The notes: generated by a model not told the origin, from the sequence alone. Counted from the first letter of the stretch, positions 1 through 10,820 are shown. The stretch is 23,426 bases of DNA from Elusimicrobiota bacterium (GCA_037137395.1 JBAXKK010000036.1:1-23426), one strand, 5' to 3'. Numbers and translations: made by a program.

Positions 1-114
1 CATAGGCCGTTTGTCGGCCATAGGCCCTGATACGGCACTGGCATAGCCTTGCGCTTGATCCTCGACCCGCTGCTGCGGGGAATCCTGCAGAATAATCCTG
101 TTCCTTGATTTCAT
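1..114 (-). CDS. Possible 5' part of the next gene of the minus-strand operon (hypothetical, runs off the left edge)
   Basis: ATG at 114-112 opens a stop-free frame to base 1 (MKSRNRIILQDSPQQRVEDQAQGYASAVSGPMADKRPM...), 37 nt downstream of the 152 stop and co-oriented. No clear RBS and no recognisable motif. Confidence 0.3.
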   Translation of the reverse strand, partial: MKSRNRIILQDSPQQRVEDQAQGYASAVSGPMADKRPM

Positions 115-151: not shown

Positions 152-1318
152 TCATGTCAGCCGCCGATCTTGCGCCAGCGACCAGAAATATTTTCCGGTT
201 TTAAAGCTTCTTTTAACGCGGCCTTTCTTGACCAGCGCCTCGCCGGTGGTCAGGACGCTTGAGCCGTCCCTGCAGTCGTGGCAAAGCGGCAGGTTGCGCG
301 CGAGAGCGAGCACACGAGCCGTGGAGATATCGTTCTCTTTTTTAAGAACTTCCACGAAGCATTTTTCCAGGCTGTCCAGATATCCCGGTTCGGGACGCAG
401 CGCCCTTTTCTTCGCCGGCCGTGTTACCGGCTTAAATCCTTTCCAACCGAAAAGCTCCAGATAATTATGATCTACTCCGGAGCATCGCCTTTTGAATACG
501 CAGCCGGCGCAGACCGGCCCGCGCTCTTTGGCGTCGGCGATGTTGGAGTCCAGATCCCAGGTTCGGCCCAGAGGCGCGGCTACCAGGGTGTTAAATTTGT
601 AAAGTTCTACGGCCCGGGTTTCATGGCCGGGAAGCAGGCAGGGGGGCATGTTGAGAGCTTTTACGCCTTTTCCCAAGCCAGCGGCCTGCGCCAGGTCAAG
701 CGCTTCGGTTATAAACTTTGAAGCGTCAGGCATGCTGACTCCAAGCGTCCGATAGTTCCTGCGCATATTGCCAACATAGATAGGATAGATAAGCACGAAA
801 TTTGATACCCCGCGGTCCATAAAGAACCTCATGGATTTTTTTAGCCGGCGGTAATTTTGCTTTGTCAGCAGCAGATTAACGCCTACGGAGAGGTGCAGCG
901 CGAGCATGTTGTCCAGGCCGCGCAGGCTTTTTTTAAAAGATCCGGTTTTGCCTGTGCAGCGGTCATGAGCGCGTGCGTTTTCGCCAAGAAAGGTGAATTT
1001 GCATACGGTCAGGCCGGCCTCCGCCAGAGTCCGGCACAGCTTCGGACTGGAGAGTTTCATGCCGTTGGTTTGCAGCCTTACCGCCTTAAATCCAACTTTG
1101 CGGGCCATGGCGGTCAGTGACGGCAGGTCTGAGCGCAGCAATGCCTCGCCGCCGGAAAAACCGAGCCGCTGATACCCCAACTTTTTGGCTGTGTATATAT
1201 GCCGCACGGCCGCCTTCAGTTCAGTAGTCGCCGCGGGATCAAAATCGCTCTGCGAGCAGAATCCGCAGGCCAGATCGCAGTTGTGATTAAGGATTATTTC
1301 GTAGCACTGTTTGGTCAT
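152..1318 (-). CDS. Radical SAM protein (HxsC-like C-terminal Cys motif) with an extra C-terminal winged-helix-like domain
   Basis: CDLACGFC (CxxxCxxC), FSGGEA, LQTNG, NMPPCLL, tail CAGCVFKRRCSG...YLELFGWKGFKPV, then about 75 extra residues containing CHDC. ATG at 1318 (MTKQCYEII) is preferred over ATT 1360 because it aligns with the N-terminus of paralog 1394-2314. Confidence 0.9.
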   Translation of the reverse strand: MTKQCYEIILNHNCDLACGFCSQSDFDPAATTELKAAVRHIYTAKKLGYQRLGFSGGEALLRSDLPSLTAMARKVGFKAVRLQTNGMKLSSPKLCRTLAEAGLTVCKFTFLGENARAHDRCTGKTGSFKKSLRGLDNMLALHLSVGVNLLLTKQNYRRLKKSMRFFMDRGVSNFVLIYPIYVGNMRRNYRTLGVSMPDASKFITEALDLAQAAGLGKGVKALNMPPCLLPGHETRAVELYKFNTLVAAPLGRTWDLDSNIADAKERGPVCAGCVFKRRCSGVDHNYLELFGWKGFKPVTRPAKKRALRPEPGYLDSLEKCFVEVLKKENDISTARVLALARNLPLCHDCRDGSSVLTTGEALVKKGRVKRSFKTGKYFWSLAQDRRLT

Positions 1319-1335
1319 CGTGTAGTAAGGCGGGT

Positions 1336-1377
1336 AAAGACGAAGGTGCCGGTAAATCAAAATCCATCTTCGTCTTT
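1336..1377. promoter_or_regulatory. Intergenic stem-loop between the two paralogous radical SAM genes
   Basis: AAAGACGAAGGTG (1336-1348) pairs with CATCTTCGTCTTT (1365-1377): 12 of 13 Watson-Crick pairs and a 16-nt loop. No long U tract follows on the minus strand. Confidence 0.55.
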
Positions 1378-1393: not shown

Positions 1394-2314
1394 CTATTTT
1401 GTTTTAAGTTTTAAGAAATTTTTTACGGGTTTGAATTCCGTCCAGCCGTAGAGTTTCGGATACTCCCGCCACGGCCCTTCGCAGATCTCTAAATACTTGC
1501 ACTGGGCGCAGCGCGGACCTTTAACCTTGCCTTCCGCGCGACGGTAAGCGCCGTAATCTTCTATAAAGCGGTCGGCGTCCACTACCGGGCCGGCCGGTAT
1601 GATGCGCTCCGCCACGCAGGCTTCGTACCCTTTCATCAGGCAGAAAGGTATGGCCTCCGTGTAGCACAATACGCCTTTTTTTCGCCCCAGATCCAGGGCC
1701 TTTTTAAGATATGGCATGACGGCGGTTTTGCGCGGCACCAGCAGTTTTTTATTTTCGGCCGCGGAACCGACTATATGGATAAAGGCGAACTGGTACTGGC
1801 TCACGCCAAGTTTTATCAGCAAGGCCGCGATGGCCGGCAGTTCCCTGTAATTCGCTGAGGTCACTACTGTGTTGGTCAGGACTGGCAGGCCGGTCCTGAC
1901 CGCGTTGGCTATGCCTGTCACACTCTGCGTGAAGCTGCCTTTGGCGCCGGTCAGCGCGTCATGCGTAGCCGCCTTGGCGCCGTGAAGACTGGGCCCCACC
2001 TCGGTCAGACCGGCTTTTACCAGTTCCCTGCAGAAGCCGGGGTAGGCAAGGGTGCGTCCGTTGGTCTGGAGCTGTATGCTGTTAAAACCGATTTTTGCGG
2101 CGGTCCTTATAAAGTCAATTATGGCCGGGTGCATACTGGGTTCGCCGCCGGTGAAGACGACGCCCCGCACGCCGCTTTTATAAGCCTTCTTAAGTTCCGC
2201 CGTCACGGTTTCCGCGCTCCGGTCGGGATACATATCACGCTTATGACCCTGCGCGCAGAAACCGCAGAGGTTGTTGCAGCGGAATGAAATCTTTATATCT
2301 ATTCGTTTATCCAT
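1394..2314 (-). CDS. Radical SAM protein (HxsC-like clade)
   Basis: CNNLCGFC, FTGGEP, LQTNGR, AIPFCLM and C-terminal CAQCKYLEICEG...YPKLYGWTEFKPV. Overlaps the upstream gene by 8 nt. Confidence 0.92.
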   Translation of the reverse strand: MDKRIDIKISFRCNNLCGFCAQGHKRDMYPDRSAETVTAELKKAYKSGVRGVVFTGGEPSMHPAIIDFIRTAAKIGFNSIQLQTNGRTLAYPGFCRELVKAGLTEVGPSLHGAKAATHDALTGAKGSFTQSVTGIANAVRTGLPVLTNTVVTSANYRELPAIAALLIKLGVSQYQFAFIHIVGSAAENKKLLVPRKTAVMPYLKKALDLGRKKGVLCYTEAIPFCLMKGYEACVAERIIPAGPVVDADRFIEDYGAYRRAEGKVKGPRCAQCKYLEICEGPWREYPKLYGWTEFKPVKNFLKLKTK

Positions 2315-3002
2315 TCGGGATGAAGGTCTCCACCAGGCGTGTTATGGATTTGTGCTTGAGGGGGCGGTTAGGTGTGAAATAAGCGTTGCCGCGCATGTAA
2401 AGCGGCTCATCCAGCACTTTTGGATTAGTGAGTTTTACCGGCGCACCTTTGCAGGCTCCGGCGCAGGGGCTTGAATTAAATTTCCTGAGCAGGGGACAAA
2501 ACCTGGTAACCGAACGGAATCTGAGCGGGTAATTAAAATGCACGCGGCCTTTATATCCTTTCAGCTTCTCCATGACTTCGCTGCAGTCGGTTTCCACTGC
2601 TTCTATCGCGTAGGTTTTGCAGAAAGAATTAAGAAATTTTTTCTCCATTCGGCCGATCTCCCACATAAGGAGTCTGCCCAGTATTGGCTTCGCTTTTCCC
2701 GGGTATTTTTTATTCAGCAGGGCCAGCAGCCCCCAATCGTTGACTACTATTTCAAAGCTCCTCTGCTTTGACAAAAAGCCGGCCGCAAGGTCGGCGGCTT
2801 TTTGAAGGCCGGTGTCGCTAAGCATCGCGGTCATGGTCACTATGCGGCCCGGGAAAAGAGCACGCAGTTTCTTGAAGTCAGCGGGGGAAGGCAGTTTGTT
2901 CTGGCAGAACTCGCTGCCGAGATAAACGGCGTCGCAGTCTTTGAGCCTGGCGGCGGTGACTAAATTGAGGTCAGAGGGTGTTAAAGATATAGTTCTTTCC
3001 AT
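2307..3002 (-). CDS. Short U32-family (UbiV-like) putative Fe-S protein, copy 2
   Basis: DAVYLGSEFCQNKLPS resembles the UbiV YLGE..C motif. Also EIVVNDWG and C-x10-C-x3-C (CPLLRKFNSSPCAGAC). Paralog of 3955-4656. Confidence 0.72.
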   Translation of the reverse strand: MERTISLTPSDLNLVTAARLKDCDAVYLGSEFCQNKLPSPADFKKLRALFPGRIVTMTAMLSDTGLQKAADLAAGFLSKQRSFEIVVNDWGLLALLNKKYPGKAKPILGRLLMWEIGRMEKKFLNSFCKTYAIEAVETDCSEVMEKLKGYKGRVHFNYPLRFRSVTRFCPLLRKFNSSPCAGACKGAPVKLTNPKVLDEPLYMRGNAYFTPNRPLKHKSITRLVETFIPNG

Positions 3003-3906
3003 AGTTCTGCGCCTCCTTTATGGCCCTTGAACCCTCAAAGACGAATAATTCTTTTGAAATGCCTTTTTCCAGCAGTTTCATCAGATAAACGGTTTTAGCG
3101 AAAACCTCTATGACCTCGGCCACATTGGGGCCCCTGGCGACTTTCATGCAGTCGGCCCCCAGATGGTAGAAATCATAGAGCGTAGAAAGCAGCCATCGGT
3201 TATCCGGCATCGGCATCTGATAGGTTCCGCCGTCGCGGTTAAGCTGGGACTGGCAGGTGAAAGGACGTGGTTTTTTGCCGGCTACGATCTCCTGGCCGCA
3301 TGGGCACCACATCGAGCACAGCGGATTGAGGTTCGCCTCATAAAAAAGCGGCAGGCAGAATATTTCTATATCTATCCCCTGCTTGTTGTTGAAGAAAGGT
3401 GCGGCCTCTTCGGTGGAGAGCTGCTGTGGGAGAACTATGCGGTTTACGCCGCGCTTGCCGAAAAACTCCATCGCGCCGCGGTTGAAGCAGAGGGCCAGCG
3501 TGCTAAGCGTGAAATAGGTCTTTATCCTGTGTTTTTTAAAATAGTCCAGCAGAGCGATATCCCTTATGATGACGCCGTCCATGCCCCTTTCCACCAGGGC
3601 TGCTACGGTCCTAGCGGCCTTGTCAAATTCAGGGTCGGGGAAAATATCATTGGCTACCAGAAAAGCTTTCTTGTTCAGGGAATGAGCCAGATCTATGGTC
3701 CTGTGTATCTCGGCCATCGAAGGAAAATTCTCGGCCCTGACTCCGTGGTTCGGGATTTCTGGCAGGCCGCAATAGACCTCGTCGGCGCCGCGGGTCAGAA
3801 AATATTCCGCCTCTTTGGCCGTGCGGACTCCCACGGTCATTTCCATCCGGGTTCTTTTTCTTTTAACCGGGGTTGCGGGCGTTAGCGGGTTTTTCTTAGC
3901 TCTCAT
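2971..3906 (-). CDS. Long U32-family (UbiU/TrhP-like) putative Fe-S protein, copy 2
   Basis: GADEVYCG, DGVIIRDIAL, LSTLALCFN, RIVLPQQLS, EIFC-x12-C-x3-C...C and MKVAR. GAGG RBS 4 nt before ATG 3906. Paralog of 4619-5497. Confidence 0.85.
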   Translation of the reverse strand: MRAKKNPLTPATPVKRKRTRMEMTVGVRTAKEAEYFLTRGADEVYCGLPEIPNHGVRAENFPSMAEIHRTIDLAHSLNKKAFLVANDIFPDPEFDKAARTVAALVERGMDGVIIRDIALLDYFKKHRIKTYFTLSTLALCFNRGAMEFFGKRGVNRIVLPQQLSTEEAAPFFNNKQGIDIEIFCLPLFYEANLNPLCSMWCPCGQEIVAGKKPRPFTCQSQLNRDGGTYQMPMPDNRWLLSTLYDFYHLGADCMKVARGPNVAEVIEVFAKTVYLMKLLEKGISKELFVFEGSRAIKEAQNYGKNYIFNTL

Positions 3907-3910
3907 GATT

Positions 3911-3927
3911 CCTCTTTGGATATTATA
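3911..3927 (-). promoter_or_regulatory. Internal -10 element (TATAAT) and RBS upstream of the second U32 pair
   Basis: Minus strand reads ...ttgttatatataatatccaaaGAGGaatcATG. Perfect TATAAT at 3927-3922 in an AT-rich 48-bp gap. No convincing -35. Confidence 0.45.
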
Positions 3928-3954
3928 TATAACAATACGAGTGAGGAAATGTTT

Positions 3955-4656
3955 TTAGCGGTCCTGTTTTCCCCGGCCGGTCAGCGGCATAGTTACCTCG
4001 CGCCAGGCGGTTTTATCCGCCCGGGACGGGGGAACAGGAGTGAAATACGCTTTTTCAGCCAGGACCAGTTTGAAATCCAGACAGCGGCTGGAAAGTTTCA
4101 GAAGCCTGCCTTCGCAGGAGTGATCGCAGACGGACTTGAAATGCCGCTCAAAAGGGCAGTAGGTCGTGACGGCCCTGAATATTAATCCGTGGTGGCGTGA
4201 GACCTTCAGCCCGAGTCTTCCGGAAACAAGTGTTTCAAGTTCCGGGGTGTCGGCTTCGGCTGAAATTATGGCGTTTTTTTTCAGGAAACTCCGCGCCCAG
4301 CCGCGCTCCATCTTAACAAGTTCCCGGACCATAAGTCTGCCGGCTGAAACACGCGTCTGGCCGTATGCCCTGACCACCGGCAGGAATCCCCAATCGTTTA
4401 CTACGACTTCCCGGACCAGTCCTCCGCCCAGCCGGCTCAAAAGCTCTTTCCACCGGGCCAGGCCGCTATCTGTCATAAGCGAAGTGGCCAGCGCAAGGGA
4501 GCCGGGGAATATTTTCCCAAGCTTTTTAAGGCATTCAGGCGAAGGGACCTGATTCTGGCAGAATTCGCTGCCCACGATGAGCGTGGAATAGGCGGCCAGT
4601 TTTTCAGGCAATATCGCTTCAGCCTGCGAAGGGTTTAAAAGTAAAGCTTTTTCCAT
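3955..4656 (-). CDS. Short U32-family (UbiV-like) putative Fe-S protein, copy 1
   Basis: IVGSEFCQNQVPS, EVVVNDWG, GRLM and C-x9-C-x3-C (CPFERHFKSVCDHSC). Confidence 0.72.
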   Translation of the reverse strand: MEKALLLNPSQAEAILPEKLAAYSTLIVGSEFCQNQVPSPECLKKLGKIFPGSLALATSLMTDSGLARWKELLSRLGGGLVREVVVNDWGFLPVVRAYGQTRVSAGRLMVRELVKMERGWARSFLKKNAIISAEADTPELETLVSGRLGLKVSRHHGLIFRAVTTYCPFERHFKSVCDHSCEGRLLKLSSRCLDFKLVLAEKAYFTPVPPSRADKTAWREVTMPLTGRGKQDR

Positions 4657-5497
4657 ATTCTAAAGGTTTAGCGTCCAGTTTTCGGCCTTCGTGCACGAAG
4701 AGCTTGCGGGAGATTCCTTTTTCCAGCAGCTTAAGAAGATATCTGGCCTTGTGGAACAGATCTATCTGGCGCAGGGTGTTTGGCCAGCGCGCCACTTTCA
4801 GATGGCCTATGCCGGACTTGTAGTGATCGTAAAAAGCGTTAAGCATGTAGTCGGGGCCTGGCATCGGCATAAAAAATTCTTTCGCGCCGTTCTTGAAAGG
4901 CAGCAGACATGTGAAATCCCTGAAGCCGCCTTTTACATGCTGACCGGTCTGAGGGCAGGGTAGTGAGCAGAGGGAATCCACGTTTATGCCGTAATAGAGA
5001 GCCTGGCAGAAGACTTCGGTCTCTATGCCGAACCGGTTTTTTACGAGGCCGGCGGAGTTTTCCGGCATCATCTGCATGGGGAGGACGAGTCTGGAGACGC
5101 CCAGATCCGCGAAAAATCCCAGCGCTTTTGAGTTGAAGCAGTTTGCCAGAGTGCTTAAAGTAAAATAAAAACGGAATTTATTTTTCTTAAAATAGGCGAG
5201 CAGGGCCGGGTCACGCACTATGACGCCGGAAAGGCCTTTGGCTTTGAGGTCGGTCAGAAGCCGCAGCGTCAGGGCGTATTCTTTCTCGTGAACTATTTCG
5301 TTGGCGGCGACAAAGACTTTTTTCCCGCGGGCGCGCGCCAGTTTTATTATCTCTTCTACGGCGCCGGGGCCGGAGAGGTTCTCGCGGGGAAGCCTGTTAT
5401 TGTGCAGCCCGATCAGGCCGCAATAAACCTCGTCAGCCCCTGAGGTAAGGAAATATCCGGCCTCTTTTACAGATTTTACTCCGACGGTTATCTTCAT
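4619..5497 (-). CDS. Long U32-family (UbiU/TrhP-like) putative Fe-S protein, copy 1
   Basis: GADEVYCG, GVIVRDPAL, LSTLANCFN, RLVLP, EVFC-x12-C-x3-C-x15-C and LKVAR. Confidence 0.85.
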   Translation of the reverse strand: MKITVGVKSVKEAGYFLTSGADEVYCGLIGLHNNRLPRENLSGPGAVEEIIKLARARGKKVFVAANEIVHEKEYALTLRLLTDLKAKGLSGVIVRDPALLAYFKKNKFRFYFTLSTLANCFNSKALGFFADLGVSRLVLPMQMMPENSAGLVKNRFGIETEVFCQALYYGINVDSLCSLPCPQTGQHVKGGFRDFTCLLPFKNGAKEFFMPMPGPDYMLNAFYDHYKSGIGHLKVARWPNTLRQIDLFHKARYLLKLLEKGISRKLFVHEGRKLDAKPLEYGKSFTFKPFAG

Positions 5498-5507
5498 GGG
5501 TAGCAGT

Positions 5508-7310
5508 TTAGCGAGTTCTCATCCAGAGTTCCAGCATGAACAGGTTCCAGAGCCTGCCGTTGTGATCTTTCTCACCGGTCAGATGTTCCAAAAAAAGTTT
5601 TTCCACGGCTTTGCGCTTAAAAATATGTGCGGTTCTGGCGTCCGAAGAAAGCATGGAATCCCGGAAGAGCTTGTTCAGAGAACCCTTTATCCAAAGTCCG
5701 GCGGGTACGCTGAAGCCGCGCTGTTTAGCGGCGGTTATCTGACGCGGCAGATGTCGTTCCATCGTTTTGCGGAGTATGAATTTGCAGTTGCCGAGTCCGG
5801 GGAGTTTCCATTTTTCCGGCAGTGAGCGGGCAAGTTCCACAAGATTGTGGTCCATATAAGGGAAGACCACTCTCATGCCGGCGCGCGCGGCAGTGGCGCG
5901 CAGTCTGGGCACGGTGCATTCCGGATGGAAGGCGCAGAGGTCAGGCAGAGTAAGCCTGTTCAGCCAATCCTGCCCCGCCGTGTCTTTGATAATTTTTTGT
6001 ATAAGCCCGGAGGCAGTTTCGTGCTGCGTCCCGAGCGAAGCGTGGAATTCAGGGCGGCAGAGCTCCCGCCTTTCCTGTTTGAGGTAAAAATCGCCCGTGT
6101 CACAGAAGTAGATGCGGGAAAGCTCGGAGTAGATAAGTTTAAGTCTCTTATCGGTGGTATTGCGGATCTTGTCGGCCATATATGACGGCAGGCGGCTGCC
6201 GGCGGCTTGAGCTTTTGCCAGCAGAAGTTCCATTTCCGGGGCTTTTTGTTCCCGCGCCATATTGATCATCTGTCTTACGCGGCCGTAGCCCGCGAAGTTC
6301 TCGTCGCCTCCGTCCCCCGAGAACATGACATTGGCCACACCCTTCATCTGCTGCGCCGCTTTCCAAAGAGGAAAGGCGCACTGGTCCGCCTGCGGCTCGC
6401 CGTAAGCGGCGGACATTTCCAGAATATCTTTCTCGCCGGGCTCACCGTAATATATCTCATGGTGGTGCGAGCGGATGGCTCTTGCCAGAGTCCTTCCGGG
6501 ACCGAAAAAATCCCATTCTTTTCCCTCTACTCCGAGGGTGAAGGTGTTGACATCCGCACCGCAATGTATGGCCAGGGCTGAAACAGAAGAGGAATCTATG
6601 CCGCCCGAGACCATGGCGGCCGCTTGTTTCTCCTTGCCCAGGCGGTGCCTGGTGGCGTCCACAAGCGCCGAGTGCACGGCTTCGGAAGCTTCGTTAAAGG
6701 AGGAGAACCGGCCCTCTTTCATGGGCGGGGTCCAATACGCGCTTATAGATATTTTTTCGCCGCGCAGGGTCAGCACGGAGGCCGGCGGCAGTTTCCTCAC
6801 CCCTTTATACATGGTGAAGGGAGAGGGGATATAGCGCATGGTGAGGTAAAGATCTACGGCGCGCGGATCGGTCCCGGCGTCTACTCCCGGCAGGCGGCTC
6901 AGCATGGCGGGGTCCGAAGCCCAGGCTATGCCGCCGGAGAAGACAGCGTAAAAAACCGGGATCTCGGAAAAGCGGTCGGTCCCAAGCAGGATAGAATTAT
7001 TGTCCGCGTCATACATGACTAAAGCAAATTGCCCGCGCAGGGCGGAAGGAAAAGCGCTTCCCAGTTTTTGGTAAAAGGCGGCCGCGTCTTTGGCGCTTAC
7101 GTCGGGGCTTTCAAGCTGCAGCCATGAACCGGACTTCCCGGCAGAGTTAAGAATGGAGCTTCCGGGCGGAAGGGCCAGACCCGGGGCGGGGGAGAGTGGT
7201 ACGGCGGCTTTCGTTTTGTCTTCGCGGCTAAGGATGTCGCGGAGCAATTTTGCCGGTCTGACGCGGTTTTTATTGAAAAGATATATTCCCGCGAAGTAAT
7301 TCGGTCCCAC
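5508..7310 (-). CDS. Asparagine synthetase-like ATP-dependent amide ligase lacking the N-terminal glutaminase Cys
   Basis: LRGQFAL, DRFSEIPVFY, SGGIDSS PP-loop, SGDGGDENFAGY, FPYMDH and KQRGFSVP. GTG start with AGGGG RBS 5 nt upstream. N-terminus is MGPNYFAGIY rather than MCGI. Confidence 0.9.
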   Translation of the reverse strand: MGPNYFAGIYLFNKNRVRPAKLLRDILSREDKTKAAVPLSPAPGLALPPGSSILNSAGKSGSWLQLESPDVSAKDAAAFYQKLGSAFPSALRGQFALVMYDADNNSILLGTDRFSEIPVFYAVFSGGIAWASDPAMLSRLPGVDAGTDPRAVDLYLTMRYIPSPFTMYKGVRKLPPASVLTLRGEKISISAYWTPPMKEGRFSSFNEASEAVHSALVDATRHRLGKEKQAAAMVSGGIDSSSVSALAIHCGADVNTFTLGVEGKEWDFFGPGRTLARAIRSHHHEIYYGEPGEKDILEMSAAYGEPQADQCAFPLWKAAQQMKGVANVMFSGDGGDENFAGYGRVRQMINMAREQKAPEMELLLAKAQAAGSRLPSYMADKIRNTTDKRLKLIYSELSRIYFCDTGDFYLKQERRELCRPEFHASLGTQHETASGLIQKIIKDTAGQDWLNRLTLPDLCAFHPECTVPRLRATAARAGMRVVFPYMDHNLVELARSLPEKWKLPGLGNCKFILRKTMERHLPRQITAAKQRGFSVPAGLWIKGSLNKLFRDSMLSSDARTAHIFKRKAVEKLFLEHLTGEKDHNGRLWNLFMLELWMRTR

Positions 7311-7315
7311 GTCGT

Positions 7316-7370
7316 CCCCTATGAAAAGTTGATCTGTATCATCGTATAAAATTTAAGGTTCGCAGGGCAA
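7316..7370 (-). promoter_or_regulatory. Possible sigma70-type promoter and RBS for the AsnB-like/U32 sub-operon
   Basis: Minus strand TTGCCC (7370-7365)-N18-TACGAT (7346-7341), then AGGGG (7320-7316) before GTG 7310. Confidence 0.35.
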
Positions 7371-8444
7371 TCAGCCCTTTTTCAGGGTTCGCGCGGCGCC
7401 GGGGCTTTCCAAATGCGCGCTGGTGTAGGACGTGCGGCCGCAGCGGGAACAGGTGGGCAGGAATCCGCCCTGTTTTATCAGCAGTTCACGGAATTTGCGA
7501 TAAGCCGGGCCGTTGTAGGTTTTCAGCCAGTCTCCCTGCGTGATGTTGCCCATCACATGTCCCAGCGGCTGACAGGAGACCATGTCTCCGTTGGGTCCTA
7601 CCCAGACACTGTTCCATTGCCCCAGGCAGAAGCCTTGTTTCGTAAACCCGGTCTTGGGGTCATACCACAATTTCATTTCCTTTTCTGTGAGGTCCAGGTC
7701 GAATCTGATGCTCGGGTCTTTTTCGGCCTTGATCCTGGCTGTTTCCGCGGCCAGCTTCGGAACCGAGATTCCGTCAGACATGGATTCTGACGTCCTCAGG
7801 TTCAGGCCGCTGCCGAGGCTGTTTTTGAACAGGGCGGCTGTTTTTTTGCGATCTTTTTCCCTTATGAAGTCCAGCTGGTTGAAAGCGATATGGTCGGGGC
7901 CGAGGGCCCGTAAAGCTTTATAGACGCTATAAAGCCTGTCGTGGTTGGCCGCGTTTATGGCGCACCAAAAGGTCAAATGCTTTACGCCTTTAAGAGGTGA
8001 AGAATTGATTGCCGCGCAGACGGCGGCGGTTTTCGCGAACGCGCCTTTGCGGCCCACAATGCGGTCGTGCAGCTCAGGCGTGCCGTGGAAGGATACGGCT
8101 ATTTCGTCCAGGCCGGCCTCCAGCAGTTTCCCGGCGGTCTTAATGTCCAGGGAACAACCGTTGGTGTTTACCAGGCAGCGGTGTCCGCCCTTTTTTATAT
8201 AGGCGACAAGTTCGGGCAGGTCTTTCCGGATGCCGGGTTCCCCGCCGGCTATGTAAAACTCTCTGCGCCTGGAAGAAAGCGTGTCTATGAATTTTTTCCA
8301 GACCGCCAGCGGAAGTTCTTTCCCCGTCGGTTTGCGGCGGGAGCTTTTAGCCATAAAGCAGAAGGCGCAGGCCAGGTTGCACCTGTAGGTGGTATCTATG
8401 GCCACGTAGTCCGGGTCCAGTTTTAATGTTGCGGCGTTCTTCAT
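7371..8444 (-). CDS. Radical SAM protein with SPASM/twitch C-terminal domain
   Basis: CNLACAFC, IAGGEP, VNTNG, then CLGQWNSVWVGPNGDMVSC...MGNI...LPTCSRC. ATG 8444 (MKNAATL) is preferred; the in-frame extension to GTG 8537 is a copy of the deacetylase C-terminus. Confidence 0.9.
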   Translation of the reverse strand: MKNAATLKLDPDYVAIDTTYRCNLACAFCFMAKSSRRKPTGKELPLAVWKKFIDTLSSRRREFYIAGGEPGIRKDLPELVAYIKKGGHRCLVNTNGCSLDIKTAGKLLEAGLDEIAVSFHGTPELHDRIVGRKGAFAKTAAVCAAINSSPLKGVKHLTFWCAINAANHDRLYSVYKALRALGPDHIAFNQLDFIREKDRKKTAALFKNSLGSGLNLRTSESMSDGISVPKLAAETARIKAEKDPSIRFDLDLTEKEMKLWYDPKTGFTKQGFCLGQWNSVWVGPNGDMVSCQPLGHVMGNITQGDWLKTYNGPAYRKFRELLIKQGGFLPTCSRCGRTSYTSAHLESPGAARTLKKG

Positions 8445-8495
8445 CTTGTCAGGTGTGACGGAAATATAAAGCCCCGGCGATGCCCTTGCCGGCGT

Positions 8496-8570
8496 GAATT
8501 TAAATGAGGGCGTGAGATATTCTACTTTTTCTGCCACACTCGCTGCGTTGGAATATTGTATCAGTTCTTT
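8496..8570 (-). pseudogene. Remnant duplicate of the polysaccharide deacetylase 3' end (direct repeat copy A)
   Basis: 66/75 nt identical to 10041-10115 with no gaps. Translates KELIQYSNAASVAEKVEYLTPSFKF versus KQLIQYSNVASVAKKVEYLARSFKF (20/25 aa). Confidence 0.85.
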
Positions 8571-8583
8571 AAAACTTAGATCC

Positions 8584-9924
8584 CTAAAAGGGCATATCTC
8601 TCAGGATTCTATAAACCCTGACAGGGAAGCAGAAATAAAACACAAATATGGCTACGATCTTTATAAGCGGCATCAGTCGCGGGTTCAGGGTTGAGCAGAA
8701 TGTGCCGCCTGTGACCGAGGCGCGGGCGGTCGTGTCATTGAGTAAAGGTGTTTTTTTATCCATATGCAGAGTCTTTGCGAGACGCGCGCCCGGGTAGATC
8801 ATGCAGGGGGAAAGTATAAAGTTGTGTATAGGCAGGCGCCAGATGAGTTTTATGGTTTCCATTAGTTGCGCCGGGGTTTCATCCGGAAATCCCATCATGA
8901 AAAAACCATTCGTGAAAATTCGTTTATGCACCAGATAATCGACGTTGTCAATAAGCTTCGGCAGATCAATATTCTTATGAACTCTTTTTTGCAGATCCGG
9001 GCTCGCGGTTTCAACTGCTATCGAGACGGATTTTACTCCGGCCTGCGCGAAAAGATCTATAAGTTCGCGCGTCAAAATATCAGCTCTTAAACCATTTCCA
9101 AAAAAAAGCTTTGTGCCGGGCAGCTCATCGCGTATCCGTCTCATTATTTCAGAAGCGCGGTCTTTGTCAAGGTTGAAAATGTCATCTATTATCTCTATCT
9201 CCGTTATCCCATATACCTCTCTCAGCGTCTTTAGCTCAGACAGCACCCGCTCAGGGGAATGCGCGCGGAAATGTTTGCCGAACATGTTGTGGCAGAAAGT
9301 GCAATGATAGGGGCAACCTCTGGAGGTTGTTATTGACATGTGGGTGTGCACGTAGAGTAATCGAGACTGAGGGTGAAATGCTGTATTGCGGTCAAAATTT
9401 GTAAGACTCCAGTCGGGCATGGGAAGCGAGTCTAAATCTTCTATAAAAGGTCTGTTTGGATTATGGTGAGGAACTCCTTGCTCAATATAGGACACGCCCT
9501 TTATGTTCTCCAGTCCGTGACCTTTTTCTAAAGCCGATACTAGCTCGGCCAGGGTTTCTTCTCCCTCATTGCGCACCACGGCATCTATATTCCCACTGTT
9601 CAGACATTCATCGGGGCAGGATGTGGGATATGCTCCGCCTGCTATGATGAACGGCTTCGGAGCAGAAGCTGCAATTTGGGCGGCTATCTTATACATGGAA
9701 ATAGCCTCCGCTGTTATGGCGCTTATTCCCACCACGTCCGGCCTGAAGGTCGCGAGTTCTTCGGCCAAGGCCTGGTGGGGCCTCTTGCAAAGATCCATAT
9801 GAAGAAGTCTGATATCGCTATAGCCGGCTTTTTTTAGAGCGCCGGCAAGATATAGCAGACCGACCGGGGGGAAAGCAAGATTGTATCTTTTGGGGCAAGA
9901 GGCTTTTATCAGCAAAAATCTCAT
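8584..9924 (-). CDS. Cobalamin-binding radical SAM protein (class B methyltransferase-like), group A
   Basis: PPVGLLYLAGAL, PDVVGIS, GGAYPT, EGEET, TSRGCPYHCTFC, DDIFN and GFFMMGFPDET. ATGA overlap with the deacetylase stop. Confidence 0.92.
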   Translation of the reverse strand: MRFLLIKASCPKRYNLAFPPVGLLYLAGALKKAGYSDIRLLHMDLCKRPHQALAEELATFRPDVVGISAITAEAISMYKIAAQIAASAPKPFIIAGGAYPTSCPDECLNSGNIDAVVRNEGEETLAELVSALEKGHGLENIKGVSYIEQGVPHHNPNRPFIEDLDSLPMPDWSLTNFDRNTAFHPQSRLLYVHTHMSITTSRGCPYHCTFCHNMFGKHFRAHSPERVLSELKTLREVYGITEIEIIDDIFNLDKDRASEIMRRIRDELPGTKLFFGNGLRADILTRELIDLFAQAGVKSVSIAVETASPDLQKRVHKNIDLPKLIDNVDYLVHKRIFTNGFFMMGFPDETPAQLMETIKLIWRLPIHNFILSPCMIYPGARLAKTLHMDKKTPLLNDTTARASVTGGTFCSTLNPRLMPLIKIVAIFVFYFCFPVRVYRILRDMPF

Positions 9925-10820
9925 TGCTGCAGCACCGATACGGGGAGTCGGCAGGCTGTTTGTAGAACCATGTCTTTTGCAGATAGATTCATGTTAAGCT
10001 CGGGGCCCCGGGAAAGTCCCAGCACTTCTCCCGCGGGGGCGAATTTAAATGAGCGCGCGAGATATTCTACTTTTTTAGCCACGCTTGCAACGTTGGAATA
10101 TTGTATCAGTTGTTTCGTCAGCCCGGTTCCGGTCGGCGCTATTTCACCGAATTCCCAGGAGTGGCAATAAAGGATTCCGGGCAGTCCCAGGGCGTTCAAT
10201 CCTGCCAGCCTTGAAGCGATAAAGTTTTTGGGCATGAGGCGAAGGAATGTGCCGCCCAGGAATGGGAGCTTCACTCCGGCAAAACTGAAAACTGAGGGAG
10301 GGAATTCCATGAGGCCGCTGGCATCGGTGTAGGGCGCTCTGCGCCTGTGGGAAAGAAAAACGGGATAGAGGCTTGAATCATAGGCGTAGCCCGCTTCTTT
10401 GATAGCGGCGAGATAAAAGGACTCGTTTTTTAAAATGGAAAAAGTAGGAGCCCTGTAGCCCAGCGGGGCTTTCCCTGTCAGCTTTTCAAGCGCCGCCCTT
10501 GAATCAGCCAGATCTTTTTTAAATTCGGCTTGGCTCATCCTGAACACTGATCTATGGGTCCCGCCGTGGCTGGCAACTTCATGTCCGGCCGACGCTATCG
10601 CTTTGACTGTATCGGGATATTTGCGCGCCACCGAACCCAGAATAAAGAAAGTCGCTTTAACGGCTATTGTGTCCAGCATGACCAGTATTCTGGAAACATC
10701 GGCGGGCAAGCCGCTTTGCTTATCGGCAAAGGCCGGGTCGCCCGCGAATAGCACCGTGTCAAACCATTCTTCCACATCTATGGAGAGGGCATTGACAACG
10801 GAGGAGGTGTCTTTAATCAT
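9921..10820 (-). CDS. Polysaccharide deacetylase (CE4; XrtA/PEP-CTERM-associated, DUF3473-like)
   Basis: NALSIDVEEWF, ATFFILG, GHEVASHGGTH, GYRAPTFSI, YDSSLYP, GGTFLRL and YCHSWEF. Confidence 0.92.
   Translation of the reverse strand: MIKDTSSVVNALSIDVEEWFDTVLFAGDPAFADKQSGLPADVSRILVMLDTIAVKATFFILGSVARKYPDTVKAIASAGHEVASHGGTHRSVFRMSQAEFKKDLADSRAALEKLTGKAPLGYRAPTFSILKNESFYLAAIKEAGYAYDSSLYPVFLSHRRRAPYTDASGLMEFPPSVFSFAGVKLPFLGGTFLRLMPKNFIASRLAGLNALGLPGILYCHSWEFGEIAPTGTGLTKQLIQYSNVASVAKKVEYLARSFKFAPAGEVLGLSRGPELNMNLSAKDMVLQTACRLPVSVLQQ
10041..10115. repeat. Direct repeat copy B (within the deacetylase 3' end)
   Basis: Matches 8496-8570 at 66/75 nt. The offset is 1545 bp, a multiple of 3. Confidence 0.9.

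Follow-up and report, generated by a model that had tools for sequence, protein, structure and literature searches.

Introduction

The hydroxylases known from the U32 family act on ubiquinone precursors or on RNA bases, and their chemistry is still reported as unproven in vitro (PMC10990095, PMC11574389). The closest described system is UbiU-UbiV (YhbU/YhbV in Escherichia coli), an O2-independent ubiquinone hydroxylase for which the use of prephenate has been proposed (PMC10990095). It is encoded by adjacent genes for a long and a short protein with the U32 fold. The His-Xaa-Ser (HXS) peptide system HxsABCD, in the form described from E. coli, is made up of four genes, has a peptidoglycan-binding domain next to its five repeats, and acts as a periplasmic anti-phage defence; U32 is not mentioned as a term in the main text of that paper (PMC13128918). 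In a full-text search of the literature outside subscription journals, we found no publication that connects U32 pairs with His-Xaa-Ser clusters, with ribosomally synthesised and post-translationally modified peptides, with qhp operons or with Elusimicrobia.

Here we describe a stretch of 23,426 nucleotides from an Elusimicrobiota bacterium (GCA_037137395.1 JBAXKK010000036.1:1-23426), referred to as the window, which carries two consecutive pairs of UbiU/UbiV-like genes, L1-S1 and L2-S2. The window is the whole of contig C36 of a 2.70 Mb genome (G000; 98.9% complete, 7.7% contaminated). The named homologues of its proteins are from Elusimicrobia, and the sequencing runs that match it best are freshwater or lake metagenomes. 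The gene anatomy, the fold, the phylogeny, the cysteine conservation, the cluster location and a shikimate-to-prephenate operon for which no exit to phenylalanine or tyrosine was found are directly supported. The reading that we prefer, at about even odds, is that the pairs would be two prephenate-fed, O2-independent iron-sulphur heterodimer hydroxylases that tailor the product of the peptide precursor HxsA4.

Two long-short pairs arose by an old duplication

Four open reading frames on the minus strand follow each other in the order L1-S1-L2-S2, the long-short-long-short arrangement given in the preliminary description (Table 1). All the motifs listed there were found: GADEVYCG, LSTLAxCFN and KVAR are present in L1 and L2, GSEFCQN..PS and VVNDWG in the short copies, which also have the series C167-x9-C177-x3-C181 (S1) and C169-x10-C180-x3-C184 (S2). 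The identity is 45% between L1 and L2 and 37% between S1 and S2. The conserved overlaps of 32 and 38 nt were measured in the window and recur in orthologous loci. Among 16 L/S pairs, the two of the window included, the overlap is 38 nt in six, 32 nt in seven and 53 nt in three. S2 in turn overlaps the HxsC-like gene behind it by 8 nt.

Seven of the eight best loci in our genome collection carry the complete L1-S1-L2-S2 block. In the trees, L1, L2, S1 and S2 each form a clade of nine rows with a support of 99-100 and matching internal topology. Each copy has its own orthologue clade in other Elusimicrobia, which points to an old duplication with retention of both copies, and the matching L and S clades agree with the earlier proposal that the pair was duplicated as a unit and then diverged. 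A recent tandem duplication was rejected for the same reason.

An S gene is adjacent to 114 of the 121 L genes. The mirror-tree correlation of L and S is 0.90, which is no proof of co-evolution because adjacent genes are inherited together. S was found in 57 of the 401 genomes of the phylum and in none of the 118 genomes of the sister family. In the window's own family it is present in 55 of 80 genomes, and a single genome can have as many as nine copies. There are 28 cases, spread over 22 genomes, of two S genes lying close together.

The long subunits form a U32 clade of their own

Both long subunits match the Pfam U32 family (PF01136), L1 with 47.3 bits and L2 with 58.1 bits against a gathering score of 22.4, the match spanning only the N-terminal 90 of the 233 profile positions. 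Their best NCBIfam match is the UbiU model NF047963, with 55-62 bits (L1 55) against a cut-off of 440, and the TrhP models match weakly (43-57 bits). The predicted structure of L1 (predicted local distance difference test (pLDDT) 89.9) gave the U32 protein Mk0906 (5d88) as its top Foldseek match (E 3.6e-8). When the PDB sequences were searched with the L profile, 5d88 was reached at E 0.57 only.

For the phylogeny, a fast tree of 154 rows and an IQ-TREE subset of 39 rows, chosen to sample every clade, were calculated with references typed by NCBIfam or Pfam. A branch with 100/100 support separated the L family from UbiU, TrhP, TrhP1/2 and RlhA; the labels of TrhP1 and TrhP2 in our trees are swapped relative to Sakai 2019, which leaves the result unaffected. 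With a position outside the UbiU and TrhP clades and scores far below the cut-off, L1 and L2 are not bona fide UbiU/V or TrhP proteins. Like TrhP, TrhP1/TrhP2 and RlhA, they have the U32 barrel, the conserved Glu, the second Cys and, from gene neighbourhoods, a putative link to prephenate. They differ from these proteins in their clade, in the absence of the C-terminal RNA-type domains and in the incomplete E-C-C triad, the first essential Cys being absent.

The UbiU motif CX6CX16CX38C is not present in L1 and L2. The equivalents of the UbiU residues C176, C193 and the Glu are kept, those of C169 and C232 (the first and fourth Cys of the motif) are absent, and C164 and C181 are found instead, giving the series C-x12-C-x3-C-x15/16-C. 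In a cysteine census, 51 matches were examined, eight of which belonged to other groups, so that 37 L1 and 6 L2 homologues were counted. C164 is present in 42 of the 43, and C177, C181 and C197 in all 43. The Glu of TrhP and RlhA (E161) is kept, together with C177 and C197, in 37/37 L1 and 6/6 L2 homologues, as are K234 and R237.

A long protein of the same L family is encoded beside qhp genes in Bacillus azotoformans LMG 9581. By elimination (five motifs against five rows) it is probably the entry of PepU32#6, an uncharacterised subfamily that was drawn by hand on a neighbour-joining tree (Kimura 2017; Sakai 2019). L1 and L2 differ from it in their shorter C-termini and their rearranged cysteine set, and they are a derived branch within Elusimicrobia. 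The short partner family of the PepU32#6 type has no Pfam or NCBIfam model.

The short subunits are remote relatives of UbiV

S1 and S2 had no match in Pfam or NCBIfam, and the UbiV model NF047965 (cut-off 275) was silent at E 0.01. A profile of 44 S sequences collected 1,767 clusters at 50% identity. True UbiV was not recovered with an S profile at E 1e-4. When an 88-row S profile was compared with a 23-row UbiV profile by hhalign, the probability was 95.3 (E 2e-8), and C33, C167, C177 and C181 of S1 aligned onto all four ligand cysteines of UbiV, C39/C180/C193/C197 in the numbering of 10.1101/587956. The UbiV ligand pattern CXnCX12CX3C is thus present in the S family with a spacing of 9-10 instead of 12, in a protein of about 230 residues, and the four cysteines are 98-100% conserved (134 S rows). 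Judged by profile alignment, the S proteins are remote UbiV homologues with all four putative cluster cysteines in register.

The structure predicted for S1 is a TIM barrel (pLDDT 90.4). In Foldseek, Mk0906 (5d88) had the highest template modelling (TM) score, 0.53, among the matches listed, and a structure search of the Atlas gave U32 clusters at a TM score of 0.70. In VIA-align, 5d88 (Z 11.3, root-mean-square deviation (rmsd) 4.3, 194 residues aligned) ranked below CutC (Z 13.2, rmsd 3.8, 176 aligned); this places Mk0906 amid generic barrels and shows a generic TIM barrel only. Sequence searches of the PDB with the S profiles gave nothing meaningful. The absence of a U32 fold in the short proteins, which would have spoken against the preliminary description, was not observed, as the model of S1 has a U32-type fold. 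Profiles, structure searches and hhalign together support the anatomy of a UbiU-like and a UbiV-like partner. We conclude that the L and S proteins are built like UbiU and UbiV in their architecture, yet are not members of those families.

A sister double pair occurs in two genomes (L137 in G345, L138 in G383). Its long subunits have lost the conserved Glu in addition to the first canonical cysteine, and its two short copies look recently duplicated or converted.

The pairs belong to a His-Xaa-Ser peptide cluster

The preliminary description had placed the pairs outside any quinone or RNA-modification context. This held for both, and no ubi gene was identified in the window by Pfam and NCBIfam scans of its proteins. 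The pairs are not without context, since they belong to a His-Xaa-Ser peptide cluster. The left end of the window overlaps contig C61 at its right end. C61 encodes HxsB, the HxsA4 precursor, a GT28 protein and further radical SAM proteins, and in turn overlaps C64 or C31. The 51-mer at the contig end occurs four times and the join to C61 is not bridged by sequencing contigs, so that the join rests on synteny. The unbroken contigs of relatives show the same gene order across it, and a genome of the same genus has the genes on both sides at 91-97% identity. The first 151 nucleotides of the window are a repeated intergenic element with more than 30 similar copies in the genome, which breaks the assembly at this point.

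HxsA4 on C61 scored 91 bits (cut-off 55) and HxsB 470 (cut-off 370). C64 encodes HxsB, HxsD-like and HxsC-like proteins, the latter two below cut-off, and a prepilin-peptidase-like homologue. A His-Xaa-Ser precursor is therefore accompanied by HxsB, HxsC-like and HxsD-like genes on the adjoining contigs, as in the HXS system and its HxsA4 variant, and is linked to the window by the end overlap and synteny. The precursor (L094:11592-12020, on C61) has 27 HxS repeats of the form (His-Gly-Ser)n, with 28 His in the 92 residues after a predicted AQA cleavage site. Where the E. coli system has four genes and five repeats, dozens of tailoring genes are found here.

The leader of HxsA4 is basic and contains the motif FxxSEEGK, followed in our description by a hydrophobic segment and the AQA site, and the prepilin-peptidase-like gene on C64 lies in the same cluster. 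The leader may resemble those of pilins.

The distance to HxsA4 is about 30 kb or less in six of the eight double-pair loci, where that of the window counts by the inferred join; the other two (G341, G575) flank the shikimate operon. Across the family, 57 of 132 S matches, found in 31 of the 55 genomes with S, stand at most 25 kb from an HxsA4 match; a crude estimate puts the chance expectation at 2.4, and kin are not independent. This count used 75 HxsA4 rows, with duplicate, opposite-strand and most weak rows left out; the genome G580 is counted on a weak match. The neighbouring genes of the HxsA4 cluster include DegT, epimerase, B12 radical SAM and GT28 genes, and the window also has a FemAB-like gene.

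A shikimate operon leads to prephenate

The preliminary description had suggested a check of the genome for a ubiquinone pathway. In G000 neither UbiD nor SCP2/UbiT was found, and the sole UbiA-family gene is MenA-like; the gene set of the UbiUVT pathway was not found. A stand-alone chorismate mutase, which passes the Pfam cut-off and not those of NCBIfam, heads an operon with the gene for DAHP synthase and with aroE, aroC, aroK, aroB, aroQ and aroA (G000:C1 ~3500-10100, L197). No match to prephenate dehydratase or prephenate dehydrogenase was found in G000, with both searches positive in 14 of 14 controls.

Among the 80 genomes of the family, 73 have the chorismate mutase, none the dehydratase and three the dehydrogenase. 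All 12 genomes with S and without RlhA keep the mutase. Of the five genomes with neither S nor RlhA, two have no mutase, one has the dehydrogenase, one is 60% complete and one is unexplained. Two genomes have S and no mutase match, G345 (90% complete) and G393 (84%). A paralogous pair lies at most 1.7 kb from the mutase in 6 of 53 genomes; these six come from three genera, are not independent where they are kin, and are all without RlhA. In three of the five such genomes checked this pair is the only U32. The aro operon, a pair and HxsA4 occur together in G321, G331 and G233, and in the first two the operon is embedded in the HxsA4 cluster.

Proposed function and alternatives

By analogy with UbiU/UbiV (10.1101/587956, PMC10990095), each L and S would form a heterodimer with one [4Fe-4S] cluster per subunit, held by C33/C167/C177/C181 in S and by the rearranged set C164/C177/C181/C197 in L. 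A two-electron oxidation of the aromatic ring would be followed by uptake of the hydroxide that is freed when prephenate decarboxylates to phenylpyruvate. All known substrates of U32 enzymes are aromatic rings, which makes histidine the first candidate, and the most likely target would be the imidazoles in the (His-Gly-Ser)n precursor. A close alternative would be a heteroaromatic or sugar decoration from the neighbouring DegT, epimerase, B12 radical SAM and GT28 genes. The two copies may act at different positions or in sequence.

Several observations weigh against hydroxylation of the HxsA4 product by L1-S1 and L2-S2. The first canonical cluster cysteine is kept in none of the 37 L1 and none of the 6 L2 homologues, whereas other L proteins retain it in 91-100% of the rows. 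This residue is reported as essential in RlhA (C169, PMC5727448) and in TrhP (C170, PMC6599085), and its loss in L1 and L2 weakens a straight transfer of the UbiU chemistry. No counterpart of the fourth UbiU ligand C232 was found in L1 and L2, and their closest sister paralogues are without E161 too. Two of the eight double-pair loci and one of the two single-pair loci are away from HxsA4, other paralogous double pairs stand beside unrelated genes, and HxsA4 is commoner than S (70 and 55 of the 80 family genomes). The characterised HxsA, as described in PMC13128918, undergoes a change of +8 Da that is made without U32 genes. RlhA is present in 63 of the 80 family genomes, G000 included, and could alone explain why the mutase is retained in these. 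The mutase-adjacent and qhp pairs belong to other paralogues with the canonical cysteine, and therefore their evidence transfers to L1 and L2 only by family. The search for prephenate exits covered the dehydratase and the dehydrogenase, two among several possible sinks such as cyclohexadienyl dehydratase and the aminotransferase route.

The pairs might instead be prephenate-dependent hydroxylases whose substrate, be it a small molecule, a glycan or a lipid, has no relation to the HxsA4 peptide, and be mere residents of a large radical SAM island, which we regard as unlikely. The module does move, as it is found beside aro and DJ-1 genes (G341, G575), alone (G149) and with a B12 radical SAM gene and a NifH-like gene (G393), and the genes near the pairs in the window (AsnB, deacetylase, epimerase, FemAB-like) are of kinds that typically serve in sugar and envelope tailoring. 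In a genome of the same genus, an L-S pair with long subunits only 33-34% identical to those of the window occupies the same slot. Since this unrelated pair sits between conserved flanks, the cassette was swapped, and with HxsA4 in 70 of the 80 genomes the pair is optional and exchangeable. Against an unrelated substrate speak the six double-pair loci within the HxsA4 cluster, the overlap of S2 with the HxsC-like gene and the three genomes that combine aro operon, pair and HxsA4. In the same-genus locus (L147, G344:C144) the pair has the opposite orientation and the flanking genes are 80-97% identical.

We think it equally improbable that L1 and L2 serve another chemistry, be it as electron-transfer or oxidant partners of radical SAM enzymes, as a desaturase or cross-linker, or as a non-catalytic unit that binds prephenate. 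The loss of the essential first cysteine in 43 of 43 homologues, the missing C232 equivalent, the loss of E161 in the sister clade and the short Pfam match would fit such a role. However, C164, C177, C181 and C197 remain nearly or fully invariant together with E161, K234 and R237, and the ligands of S are intact. In the structural model, one and the same strand precedes C164 and the position of the lost cysteine, which makes a shift of the ligand plausible. The cysteine rearrangement is the most unusual feature of L1 and L2 and the main caution.

It is very improbable that the pairs are RNA hydroxylases of the TrhP1/TrhP2 type, which is also described as a two-gene U32 system (PMC6599085); TrhP models match L1 and L2 weakly. 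The fully supported branch separates the L family from TrhP and RlhA, the partner is UbiV-like and Cys-rich, the distribution is patchy and multi-copy, and the genome has its own RlhA. A true UbiU/UbiV for a quinone can practically be dismissed, as the shared gene order, the four-Cys partner and the UbiU model as best match of L are outweighed by scores far below the cut-off, the silent UbiV model for S, the missing UbiD and SCP2/UbiT beside a MenA-like UbiA only, and the separation in the tree.

If L1-S1 and L2-S2 tailor the HxsA4 product, hydroxylation in a peptide cluster would be a role that we did not find described for the U32 family. A wider proposal, which we hold as doubtful, is that U32 heterodimers are general O2-independent, prephenate-fed hydroxylases for peptide tailoring, that L1 and L2 use a new four-Cys arrangement to hydroxylate the histidines of (His-Gly-Ser)n, and that the mutase of the family is kept only for prephenate. 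The product would then be a surface or defence peptide hydroxylated on histidines, and a whole bacterial family would keep chorismate mutase only to supply an oxygen donor. With a large unnamed partner family and its paired long subunits in clusters for peptide maturation, the insertion of oxygen from prephenate would reach beyond the known substrates, in anaerobes, to peptides or the groups attached to them. Soluble substrates would then be at hand for the first assay in vitro, and the cysteine rearrangement that L1 and L2 have undergone is a natural test of the ligand requirements of the chemistry. A mutase kept across the family without the enzymes for phenylalanine and tyrosine would mark, at the genome level, the use of prephenate as a dedicated donor of oxygen.

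Features of the window

The coordinates are collected in Table 1. The genes upstream of L1 are inferred from their spacing to be co-transcribed. Between 7371 and 22886, eight more radical SAM genes, five of them B12-binding, lie among sugar-tailoring genes.

Table 1. Coordinates of the features in the 23,426-nt window
Feature	Position	Strand	Description
L1	4619..5497	-	292 aa, U32-family long subunit; E161, C177, C197, K234, R237 kept; G170 at the canonical first Cys; C164 and C181 clade-invariant
S1	3955..4656	-	233 aa, UbiV-like short subunit, predicted TIM barrel; C33/C167/C177/C181
L2	2971..3906	-	311 aa, paralogous long subunit; L1-type rearranged Cys set and an extra C-x-C
S2	2307..3002	-	231 aa, paralogous short subunit; C33/C169/C180/C184
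L1/S1 gene overlap	4619..4656	-	38 nt
L2/S2 gene overlap	2971..3002	-	32 nt
HxsC-like radical SAM protein	1394..2314	-	306 aa; HxsC4 is the top NCBIfam match, 143 bits against a cut-off of 500
Second HxsC-like radical SAM protein	152..1360	-	402 aa; top NCBIfam matches HxsC and HxsC4, below cut-off; syntenic in relatives
Upstream same-strand genes, variable tailoring region	5508..10820	-	AsnB-like amidotransferase, radical SAM/SPASM, B12 radical SAM, polysaccharide deacetylase
Contig end	1..51		Exact 51-nt overlap with the right end of C61; inside the repeated element (1-151)

Distant pairs in qhp operons and other loci

An S gene also accompanies a QhpC-like gene in 20 loci, and in nearly all of them it forms a pair with L in the order S-L. 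These are quinohemoprotein amine dehydrogenase operons (L013, L019, L024, L025, L037, L042, L059, L060, L071 and 11 more). QhpG, an FAD monooxygenase in the biogenesis of the cysteine tryptophylquinone (CTQ) cofactor, dihydroxylates a peptide tryptophan using O2, as reported in PMC7876137. In the fetched DNA of the 20 loci, QhpG was seen in two, both gammaproteobacterial, and this scarcity suggests parallel aerobic and anaerobic routes to CTQ. The qhp loci further suggest that the L-S family can act on peptides, which concerns another branch than L1 and L2. QhpG resembles the proposed activity in the dihydroxylation of an aromatic ring on a peptide; it is an unrelated, O2-using flavoprotein, and the qhp pairs have the reverse gene order of the window's.

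In four genomes (G341, G127, G275, G385; L131-L134) a different double L-S module is followed by a methyltransferase-like gene and a protein of about 100 residues that ends in CGPYPGYPCGTRYY, possibly a second peptide substrate. G393 has a single L1-S1 pair and other pairs (L002/L144, L145) near a fusion of NifH-like and nitrogenase component-1 type. Two or three L-S pairs per locus were found in Omnitrophota and Myxococcota (L023, L035, L015), and the multi-pair loci of Omnitrophota adjoin PqqD-domain and HxsC-like genes.

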